In this document: positions 29,989 to 48,220 of the stretch, in pieces
Numbering within the stretch: position 1 is the stretch's first letter
Layout: each line of letters starts with the position of its first letter
NCBI GenBank assembly: GCA_037305845.1
Contig: CP147778.1
Span: forward strand, 1,600,001-1,664,000
DNA length: 64,000 nucleotides
Reading direction: 5' to 3'
DNA from: Candidatus Freyarchaeum deiterrae
Lineage (GTDB): Archaea > Asgardarchaeota > Jordiarchaeia > Jordiarchaeales > Jordiarchaeaceae
Notes under the pieces: model-generated
The model's input: only the letters and a program-made list of their open reading frames with translations
What the model was told of the DNA's origin: nothing
Databases searched by the model: none
Position numbers and translations under genes: made by a program

Positions 29989-31416
29989 TTGACTCGGCAA
30001 TCAATTTTAATTAAAATTCGAGGAATATATTCAACAGCATTTACTAAAATTGTGAGAGACAGTGGATTTAAAATTACGCAAGCCACACCCGTACAAGTTG
30101 AAAGATTTAATTTAGAGAATAATTTTGAGCAGCCAGATGTGGATATAGTTGATTTCGAGAATAAACAGGGAGTTATAATTACCGGAGAAACCAGTAAAGT
30201 AAAAAAATTTGAAGAAGTATTAAGAACAGAACTCGAAGATGCAGTGTTTAGAATACCAATTATTAAATTGAACTCGCTGTATAAAGGAAAAGTAGTAAAA
30301 ATTGCAGGCAATAAAGCATTTGTTGATATTGGTAACTGTCACGCTCTTCTCCTAGACGAGGCAGTAAATGAAGGAGAAGAACATGTGATCGAAATTGTAA
30401 AAACAAATATACAAAATCCCATAGCAACAACCGAGATTTCAATAATCGGAAAGTATGTAATACTAATCGAGCAAGAAGGCATCAAAATCAGTAAAAAAAT
30501 CAGAAACAGCGAAAACAGACAAGAGCTATACTCACTGGGGGAGAAAATAAAACCAGATAACTGGGGGATAATTTTTAGGACCGGAGCAGCAAATCAAGAT
30601 CCAAACGTTTTAATTCAAGAAGTATCCGAACTAAACAAAAAAGCAAAGGAGTTAATGAAAAGAAAAAAAGAAACCACAAGCCCAGCACTTCTGTTGGAAG
30701 GCAATGAAAATATATTCATCGAGTTTACAAGCAAAGCTAAGAAAAAGCTGGATGATATCAGACAAGAAATCGTAAAAACCATTAATCAGCATCATTACTA
30801 TAAATCAATAGGACATGAATATTCTCTACTCGTTGACTTTGCAGAAGAAATTTTAACAAAATACCCAAAAATGGAAAATAGCGTCCTAGAAATTTTTAAC
30901 AAAATATACAACAGCGAATTTCCCAAAGAAGGTGACCCAATCCTAATCGAACACATAAAAATAAACGGCTATCAATTCATACTTTCCGGCATTCTAACCG
31001 ACATAGAACCCCACAATCACAATTTGGTTGTGAGACGGCAGTTTAAAGGCGGCGGATACTTTGATGGACTCAATACACCTAAGCAAACAGGAGACTACGG
31101 AATAACCGAAATCAAACTCGGATCCTGGAACCTACAAACAGAATATTACTCAAAAAATGGTGAATTTAAGGGAGCATACTACAACATAAACTCGGGAATA
31201 GAGTTTTATCCACCTAACAGACTTAGATACATAGACCTCGCTATAGACGTAATAAAATGGCCCAATGGAGAAGCAAAAATCATAGATAGAGAAGAACTCA
31301 ACGAAGCGTGCAAAAGCAAGCTAATATCAGAAAAGCTGAAAATAAAGGCTGAACAAGAAGCCGAGGGAATACTTGAAAAATTGGAAACGGAAAACAAAAC
31401 TAATAATTCCACATAG
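29989..31416 (+). CDS. fau-1: FAU-1-like RNA-binding ribonuclease (RNase E/G-like + DUF402)
   Basis: IRGIYSTA N-terminus, HHYYK, C-terminal GAYYNIN...RYIDLAIDV. Confidence 0.85.
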   Translation: MTRQSILIKIRGIYSTAFTKIVRDSGFKITQATPVQVERFNLENNFEQPDVDIVDFENKQGVIITGETSKVKKFEEVLRTELEDAVFRIPIIKLNSLYKGKVVKIAGNKAFVDIGNCHALLLDEAVNEGEEHVIEIVKTNIQNPIATTEISIIGKYVILIEQEGIKISKKIRNSENRQELYSLGEKIKPDNWGIIFRTGAANQDPNVLIQEVSELNKKAKELMKRKKETTSPALLLEGNENIFIEFTSKAKKKLDDIRQEIVKTINQHHYYKSIGHEYSLLVDFAEEILTKYPKMENSVLEIFNKIYNSEFPKEGDPILIEHIKINGYQFILSGILTDIEPHNHNLVVRRQFKGGGYFDGLNTPKQTGDYGITEIKLGSWNLQTEYYSKNGEFKGAYYNINSGIEFYPPNRLRYIDLAIDVIKWPNGEAKIIDREELNEACKSKLISEKLKIKAEQEAEGILEKLETENKTNNST

Positions 31417-31534
31417 AGAAAAAATAATATATAATGGGAAAACTTTTAAAAAAACACGACCATTCTCCTTTAGAAAATCTAATAAAAATTTTTGTCTACA
31501 AATGAGCCCCAAAGTGTAATGTGGTATTAAAGTT

Positions 31535-31720
31535 GCGGGGATTTCCAAGTGGTCAAAGCCTGACGGGTGGCCAGAGGAGGCAGACAGGAATCAAATCCCT
31601 GGCCGAGGCTCAGGACCTGCTGGCGCAGAGGCTCTCTGAAAGCTAGAGCCGCGAAAGCCTTCGCGTGTTCGAATAGAAGCATCATAAAGATGCTCCTCGA
31701 GTGTCACGCTCCCCGCACCA
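31535..31720 (+). tRNA. tRNA-Leu(CAG) with four BHB introns (31557-31574, 31584-31607, 31629-31656, 31674-31703), CCA encoded
   Basis: Splicing at canonical BHB cut sites gives an 86-nt cloverleaf: GCGGGGATTTCCAAGTGGTCAAAGGAGGCAGGCTCAGGACCTGCTGGCGCAGGCCTTCGCGTGTTCGAATCACGCTCCCCGCACCA. Confidence 0.9.
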
Positions 31721-31872
31721 TTTTCTAAATTTTTCAAATTTTAATTCTGAGTACCAATGTTTAGTTTTATGTATTAGAAATACTAATAGAAGGTAATAAG
31801 TTTCATAATATTTATAAGTTAATGGGGTGAATGTTAGTCTAGCTTTGCAAGTTTGTTTTGAGGCTGAAAGGT

Positions 31873-47847: not shown

Positions 47848-48026
47848 GCAGGGTTAGCCAAGATTCCACATAGTTTTGTGTGGAATGGGAACGGTACGGC
47901 GGTAGAAACAGCCTCTATTATGAGATGTTGCAGAAGCTCGAGATCACCTATGGCCAATAAAGTGGGTCAGAACGTGAAACTTACTGGCGGGTTTCCGCCG
48001 CGTGAGTTCAAATCTCACACCCTGCG
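47848..48026 (+). tRNA. tRNA-Ser(CGA) with three BHB introns (47863-47891 at 15/16; 47906-47935 at 30/31; 47943-47978 at 37/38)
   Basis: Acceptor stem GCAGGGT/ACCCTGC. Spliced anticodon arm GTAGG-CTCGAGA-CTTAC. Variable stem GGCGG/CCGCC, G73. Confidence 0.9.
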
Positions 48027-48220
48027 CTTACAAACAATATCAAATATGGGTAGGTATTCTTTTTGGAGACTATTTTACTTCGGTGTTTGTAATCTTTTTT
48101 CGATATCAAAAAAAGATATCTGAATGCGGTGTGTTTTCCTCTCATCCTGCGTTTTTGCTTTTCAAAGTAGGCTTGTAATTATTTTTTGGCGCCTTTTAGA
48201 CATTTATTCCCAAAGATATG

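Follow-up and report, generated by a model that had tools for sequence, protein, structure and literature searches.

The window analysed here is a stretch of 64,000 nucleotides from Candidatus Freyarchaeum deiterrae (contig CP147778.1, positions 1,600,001 to 1,664,000 of the forward strand), and coordinates are those of the window unless genome coordinates are indicated. On its plus strand, at 31535-31720, lies a tRNA-Leu(CAG) gene of 186 nt, which begins with GCGGGGA and ends with TCCCCGC-A-CCA. Four inserts, which together account for 100 of the 186 nt, divide it into five exons (Table 1). The locus forms a G+C island (57-61%) between flanks of 23-30% G+C. That this DNA holds a tRNA-Leu(CAG) with four introns had been proposed in an initial annotation, and the identification is borne out both by ARAGORN, which calls the spliced form as Leu(cag), and by colinearity with homologous intronless genes. 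The insert lengths given there (18, 24, 28 and 30 nt) add up as stated, and all four sites (D-loop, 30/31, variable-arm loop and T-loop 59/60) were recovered.

Table 1. Features of the tRNA-Leu(CAG) locus, in window coordinates.
Feature	Position	Strand	Length (nt)	Description
Promoter-like purine-rich stretch and A/T box tagaaaatctaataaaaattttt	31471-31493	+		42-64 nt upstream of the mature 5' end
Exon 1	31535-31556	+	22	acceptor 5' strand, U8, D-stem 5' strand, D-loop to A21
Intron 1, D-loop 21/22	31557-31574	+	18	H GGUC/GGCC, 4/4; bulges AA/A and AG/A; h' GCCU/GGGU, 4 bp
Exon 2, micro-exon AGGAGGCAG	31575-31583	+	9	positions 22-30: D-stem 3' strand, G26, anticodon-stem 27-30
Intron 2, anticodon stem 30/31	31584-31607	+	24	H AGGC/GCCG, 3/4; bulges AG/A and AG/G; h' CAGG/CCUG, 4 bp
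Exon 3	31608-31628	+	21	G31, anticodon loop CUCAGGA, anticodon-stem 3' strand, variable arm to loop GCAG
Intron 3, variable-arm loop	31629-31656	+	28	H GCGC/GCGA, 3/4; bulges AG/A and AA/G; h' a 6-bp hairpin GGCUCU/AGAGCC
Exon 4	31657-31673	+	17	variable-arm 3' strand, T-stem 5' strand, T-loop UUCGAA (54-59)
Intron 4, T-loop 59/60	31674-31703	+	30	H UUCG/CGAG, 4/4; bulges AA/U and UG/U; h' 2+6 bp
Exon 5	31704-31720	+	17	U60, T-stem 3' strand, acceptor 3' strand, discriminator A73, encoded CCA
T-rich trailer (ttttct)	31721-31726	+		follows CCA; possible archaeal terminator

Removal of the four inserts leaves 86 nt, the length that had been predicted for the mature form. The cuts rebuild a clean cloverleaf, as had also been claimed: ARAGORN draws it completely, with an acceptor stem of 7 bp, a D-stem of 3 bp and a variable arm of 14 nt. 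The molecule has the properties of a class II tRNA-Leu, namely a leucine anticodon in a 7-nt loop (CUCAGGA) with U33 and R37, a long variable arm and A73. According to the spliced sequence and the ARAGORN drawing it also keeps U8, A14, G18G19, G53-U54-U55-C56 and C61; its T-stem is GCGUG/CACGC and its CCA end is encoded. The conserved class II tRNA-Leu positions and A73 are Leu identity elements. The D-stem is weak, comprising 3 bp only and including U10:A25.

In view of its RNase E/G and DUF402 domains, the 475-aa product of the gene directly upstream (29989-31416, plus strand) is probably an enzyme of RNA processing; that this gene lies next to Leu(CAG) may be coincidental.

Detection of the gene and search for a second tRNA-Leu(CAG)

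The locus is not called by ARAGORN, with or without intron mode, in the window or in the whole genome, and the Rfam tRNA model RF00005 gives no match there, nor does it do so in a genome-wide search with relaxed E-values. The earlier expectation that standard tRNA finders would overlook such a gene thus holds for both tools.

Whether the genome contains another Leu(CAG) gene, a point raised with the initial annotation, was addressed in several ways. None was detected by ARAGORN, by RF00005 or in the published tRNAscan-SE/R2DT table, by BLAST searches of the genome with either the precursor or the spliced form, or by structural scans for acceptor and T-arm. The structural scans recover 27 of the 38 published tRNAs, and a second, even more disrupted Leu(CAG) gene may lie beyond their reach. 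CUG makes up about 15% of the Leu codons in long ORFs; decoding of CUG by Leu(UAG) via wobble could in principle occur.

Searching the genome for CAG anticodon loops enclosed by pairing acceptor strands gave 1081 unspecific matches. After filtering for A73 and a T-arm, those remaining were the Leu(CAG) gene itself and a spurious match inside Pro-GGG. A 'Leu(cag)' reported by ARAGORN at 47848-48027 was rejected; it is a tRNA-Ser(CGA), as its discriminator is G73, the TCAGA is not conserved, and CTCGAGA is invariant in five orthologs. This Ser(CGA) gene (47848-48026, plus strand) has a long variable arm and is interrupted by inserts in the D-loop and at positions 30/31 and 37/38. Its orthologs in the four other genomes of the genus carry an extra 16-nt insert in the variable arm that is absent from the copy described here.

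Conservation of the gene and distribution of its introns

The genome of the window (G000) was compared with four genomes of the same genus (G001-G004), one of the same order (G009) and more distant relatives. The whole 186-nt architecture, with all four inserts, is found in G001-G004 at 84-87% identity. Among the five orthologs of the genus mean pairwise identity is 94% for the exons, 69-89% for the introns and 49% for the flanks. Substitutions in stems are compensated, G3:C70 being replaced by U:A in the acceptor stem and U:A by A:U in the T-stem. The 9-nt exon 2, AGGAGGCAG, is invariant in the five orthologs, and in G018 and G048 the corresponding nine positions are contiguous with those of the neighbouring exons.

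Although the flanks are only 49% identical, an element similar to the one upstream of the gene, gaaaa-(c/t)ttaa(a)ta, lies at the same distance in the four orthologs, and the other Leu genes of G000 have A/T boxes at about -36 to -50. We consider the element a putative promoter.

It might be argued that the locus is a decaying pseudogene, a relic Leu gene that has been loaded with insertions and has lost its expression; its absence from the published tRNA list and its weak D-stem would fit such a history. However, all stems are intact in five species with their substitutions compensated, the exons are far better conserved than the flanks, and the promoter-like element has been retained. No other Leu(CAG) gene was found in the searches described above, and U10 is present also in the Leu(CAG) gene of G018, which has a single intron. 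Decay is therefore very unlikely, and conservation of this kind argues for a functional gene.

The spliced form was aligned with the intronless Leu(CAG) gene of G048, another Asgard genome, over positions 1-86 at 85% identity, and it matches intronless genes in G016, G034 and G013 as well. In the alignment against intronless Leu(CAG) genes the four inserts appear as clean gaps. A chance resemblance, with no tRNA gene at the locus, would be in keeping with the failure of the standard finders, and nothing else speaks for it; the full-length match to intronless Leu(CAG), the conserved orthologs and the complete ARAGORN cloverleaf refute it, and we give it practically no weight.

Relatives differ in the number of introns in this isoacceptor, which form a series of 0, 1, 3 and 4. 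The D-loop 21/22 site is empty in G018, G048 and G016, and occupied in G009. The variable-arm site is occupied in both G018 and G009; G048 and G016 lack an intron there, their arm being UGGCG(C/U)AGGCC. In G018 the variable-arm intron, at the same site, is the only one; in the G009 gene the D-loop and variable-arm introns occupy the same positions as here, a T-loop intron lies at 57/58, and the 30/31 intron is missing. The latter was not found in G009 or in any more distant Leu(CAG), so that among the genomes searched it is seen only in this genus. The introns of Leu(CAG) have accumulated stepwise, the variable-arm and D-loop sites being common to other families or the order.

Several of these sites are also used elsewhere in the genome. 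Leu-TAG, Leu-GAG and Leu-TAA of G000 also have an insert at D-loop 21/22, and the D-loop 21/22, variable-arm and 59/60 sites recur in its other Leu genes; among the five Leu genes an intron at 30/31 is seen in Leu(CAG) only. In the Leu(UAG) genes of G005, G003 and G001 (L006, L009 and L010, at about 1400-1575), the T-arm with its 59/60 intron is 84-86% identical to that of Leu(CAG), a likeness that the Leu(UAG) gene of G000 itself does not share. It is a hint that Leu isoacceptor genes may have recombined or undergone gene conversion with one another.

Two further observations concern the leader and the number of orthologs. A leader motif, GTGGTATTAAAG (31521-31532), resembles the junction of D-loop and intron 1, GTGGTCAAAG, and its GGTA is conserved in all five orthologs, whose flanks are otherwise only 49% identical. 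In a consensus fold that included the flanks no leader-tRNA pairing was predicted, and the motif had no partner. A metagenome scan with the 16-mer GAGGAGGCAGACAGGA, intended to provide more orthologs for covariation, returned unspecific matches only, none of them a tRNA.

Bulge-helix-bulge motifs and splicing

A bulge-helix-bulge (BHB) motif was taken to consist of a helix H of 4 bp flanked by two bulges of 3 nt, each of which is cut after its second nucleotide. The same definition is applied in a 2026 preprint (bioRxiv 10.64898/2026.10.13.758758). In each of the five species, every one of the four boundaries fixed by homology has a BHB motif, and all four motifs are reproduced by short local folds; that of intron 1 yields the D-stem, H, a bulge and h'. 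The motifs are not of equal grade. Intron 4 alone is a strict hBHBh', in which the 5-bp T-stem serves as outer helix h; the motif of intron 1 is a canonical HBh'. Those of introns 2 and 3 are of a relaxed grade, with three of four pairs in H, an h' of 4 and 6 bp, respectively, and outer helices of 1-2 bp. The earlier claim that each insert has BHB geometry is thus sound for introns 1 and 4 and applies only loosely to introns 2 and 3.

At random genome positions with fixed boundaries, motifs of equal grade occur at rates of 5e-4, 3.5e-3, 4e-4 and 2e-5 for introns 1 to 4. A scan of the precursor with free boundaries finds 52 BHB-like pairs, and the relaxed class is frequent by chance if boundaries are free, according to the 2026 preprint (bioRxiv 10.64898/2026.10.13.758758). 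The BHB evidence is strong here because homology fixes the boundaries independently of the motif. For intron 2, the junction has a single possible placement in G004, G001 and G003. For intron 3, one H pair covaries as C-G, U-G and U-A across the orthologs. An alternative placement of intron 3 at 31626-31653 also gives 86 nt and an ARAGORN cloverleaf, with GAAA as variable loop; it was rejected in favour of 31629-31656, because it has no BHB and because the loop of intronless homologs is GCAG/GUAG (arm UGGCG(C/U)AGGCC).

Other kinds of interrupted tRNA gene do not match the locus. All five exons follow one another in order on a single strand within 186 nt, which is not the arrangement of a split or permuted gene. 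Self-splicing introns of group I or group II have a ribozyme core of hundreds of nucleotides; the inserts measure 18-30 nt, and an Rfam scan of the window found no intron family.

The relaxed motifs bear on the possibility that the gene is real and incompletely spliced, the 30/31 insert, the variable-arm insert or both being retained in a non-standard or inactive tRNA while Leu(UAG) reads CUG. Introns 2 and 3 have H helices of 3/4 and weak outer helices, motifs of this class are common by chance, and the BHB of intron 2 is hidden when the full precursor is folded. Yet a 24-nt insert in the anticodon stem would be incompatible with a working tRNA, whereas the exons are 94% conserved in five species with changes compensated. 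Moreover, the h' helices of the two introns, 4 and 6 bp long, directly adjoin the bulges, at the low null rates given above (3.5e-3 and 4e-4). The H pair of intron 3 covaries, the variable-arm intron of G018 has an H of 4/4, and Ser(CGA) of the same genome likewise carries an insert at 30/31. We regard retention of an insert as improbable. Much the best account is that 31535-31720 is a functional tRNA-Leu(CAG) gene of Ca. Freyarchaeum deiterrae with five exons and four protein-spliced introns, a reading in which we have high confidence.

The genome encodes both a candidate splicing endonuclease for non-canonical sites, in the form of two EndA paralogs, and the RNA ligase RtcB. The EndA paralogs are 211 aa and 198 aa long and 32% identical. 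The best matches of the 211-aa protein are the chains 3p1z_B, 3ajv_B and 2zyz_B, which we take to be catalytic subunits of crenarchaeal heterotetramers (A. pernix, P. aerophilum). In a pairwise alignment it has a His where the 198-aa paralog has a Thr; this is presumably the catalytic His of the EndA Tyr/His/Lys triad. Judged from these sequences, the pair fits an (alpha-beta)2-type enzyme, with a predicted heteromeric assembly and specificity. The (alpha-beta)2-type is one of only two EndA types that cut non-canonical introns (PMC5829648).

We infer that the precursor is probably transcribed from the BRE/TATA-like element about 45-60 nt upstream. Each intron with its flanking exon would fold into a BHB motif, and the archaeal splicing endonuclease would cut after the second nucleotide of each 3-nt bulge. 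The enzyme most likely combines a catalytic with a structural EndA paralog in a heteromer, a type that accepts non-canonical sites. RtcB would then ligate the exons, and RNase P and a 3' nuclease would trim the ends, CCA being already encoded. The mature molecule is predicted to be a class II tRNA of 86 nt whose discriminator is A73 and whose variable arm has 14 nt.

When the full precursor is folded, the MFE structure joins the 3' part of intron 1 (31568-31578) to the 3' part of intron 2 (31596-31605). This 10-bp helix also takes in the start of exon 2 and dominates the fold, from which the BHBs of introns 1 and 2 are missing. The intron 4 motif is present both there and in the consensus fold. 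A conformer with all four BHBs is about 24 kcal/mol less stable. As the MFE fold prefers the inter-intron helix, thermodynamic folding of the whole precursor is uninformative on the BHBs.

The inter-intron helix stays paired through all five ortholog substitutions that affect it, including a double change from G-C to A-U in G002. It is also able to adopt a 'rogue' canonical BHB, and cleavage of this motif, after 31574 and 31606, would leave out the 9-nt exon 2. In silico loss of intron 2 brings the intron 1 BHB into the MFE fold, and the reverse is not the case. In these models the helix and the asymmetric refolding may reflect ordered splicing, a hazard, or coincidence.

Relation to published tRNA genes and significance

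The genome of the window is the complete 'Freyarchaeia' genome (3.58 Mb) treated, alongside complete Atabeyarchaeia genomes, by Valentin-Alvarado et al. 2024 (PMC11291895), and the coordinates in their table are those of G000. Their Supplementary Data 4 contains 38 tRNAs, with CAA, GAG, TAG and TAA for Leu and no CAG; Phe, His, Cys and Glu are also missing from it, and so are Ala-GGC and Pro-TGG. Introns are found in 92-95% of tRNA genes in that study; four are listed for Arg-TCT and Ile2-CAT, and four are given by R2DT for Leu-GAG. The published genes resemble Leu(CAG) in their non-canonical BHB introns, with four per gene and, in Leu genes, the same D-loop, variable-arm and 59/60 sites, and differ in that Leu(CAG) is not among the 38. 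The initial annotation had assumed that three introns are the usual maximum for an archaeal tRNA. This premise has been overtaken by the four-intron genes already in print (PMC11291895) and by the up to five introns per Asgard tRNA gene reported in the 2026 preprint (bioRxiv 10.64898/2026.10.13.758758). The Leu(CAG) gene is an unlisted member of a published class, and the new part is its absence from the 38-tRNA list.

The 2026 preprint is a census of Asgard tRNA introns, and it agrees with the present case in the inclusion of Freyrarchaeaceae, the BHB definition, the use of compact relatives to set boundaries, repeated gains, and at most five inserts per gene. It differs in that the census starts from tRNAscan-SE 2.0.12 calls, so that a wholly missed gene would not count. 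Leu(CAG) may escape a census of this design, because the 2024 list suggests that tRNAscan-SE misses the gene entirely.

Other tRNA-like loci are unlisted too. The Ser(CGA) gene at 47848-48026 is likewise missing from the published list of 38. At genome coordinates 1547619-1547839 (plus strand) there is a 221-nt tRNA-Phe(GAA)-like gene, GCCGTCG...CGACGGC-A-CCA, with the anticodon arm CCGGA...CTGAAGATCCGG, several inserts and an internal second copy of GCCGTCGT. Three more such loci are a class II sequence with G73 and CTGCTAA at 1690305-1690133 (minus strand), probably Ser-GCU; an initiator-like sequence, AGCGGG...CTCATAA...ACCA, at 1729308-1729443 (plus strand); and GCTCCGG...CCGGAGC-ACCA at 1790195-1790049 (minus strand), for which Glu is suspected. 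The tRNA genes show strong regional clustering, 34 of the 38 published ones and all the unlisted ones found lying within 1.11-1.89 Mb of the 3.58-Mb chromosome.

In Thermoproteales tRNA genes carry up to three introns, and sites of the 59/60 and 30/31 types occur. Genes of this kind were reportedly described by Sugahara and colleagues in 2008 (cited in PMC11291895). Likeness to them extends to protein-spliced BHB/HBh' introns at non-canonical positions and to two EndA paralogs in the genome, as in the heteromeric type, whereas the phylum differs, the four-intron Leu(CAG) gene being Asgard.

As four introns per gene are already in print, the advance made with Leu(CAG) is incremental. The gene adds a missing tRNA to the decoding set of a reference Asgard genome. 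Four introns that break every arm can cause tRNAscan-SE, ARAGORN and the Rfam model to lose an entire gene; figures for the intron burden of these lineages are therefore likely to be underestimates. A wider and rather doubtful proposal is that the most-interrupted Asgard tRNA genes as a class are the ones that go wholly unseen, biasing censuses low, and that, given the 'rogue' BHB, maturation of Leu(CAG) may need an enforced order, for example co-transcriptional splicing with intron 1 removed first. The series of 0, 1, 3 and 4 introns in one isoacceptor provides material for studying the gain of BHB introns, and the precursor with its 9-nt micro-exon provides material for testing splicing order and exon skipping.
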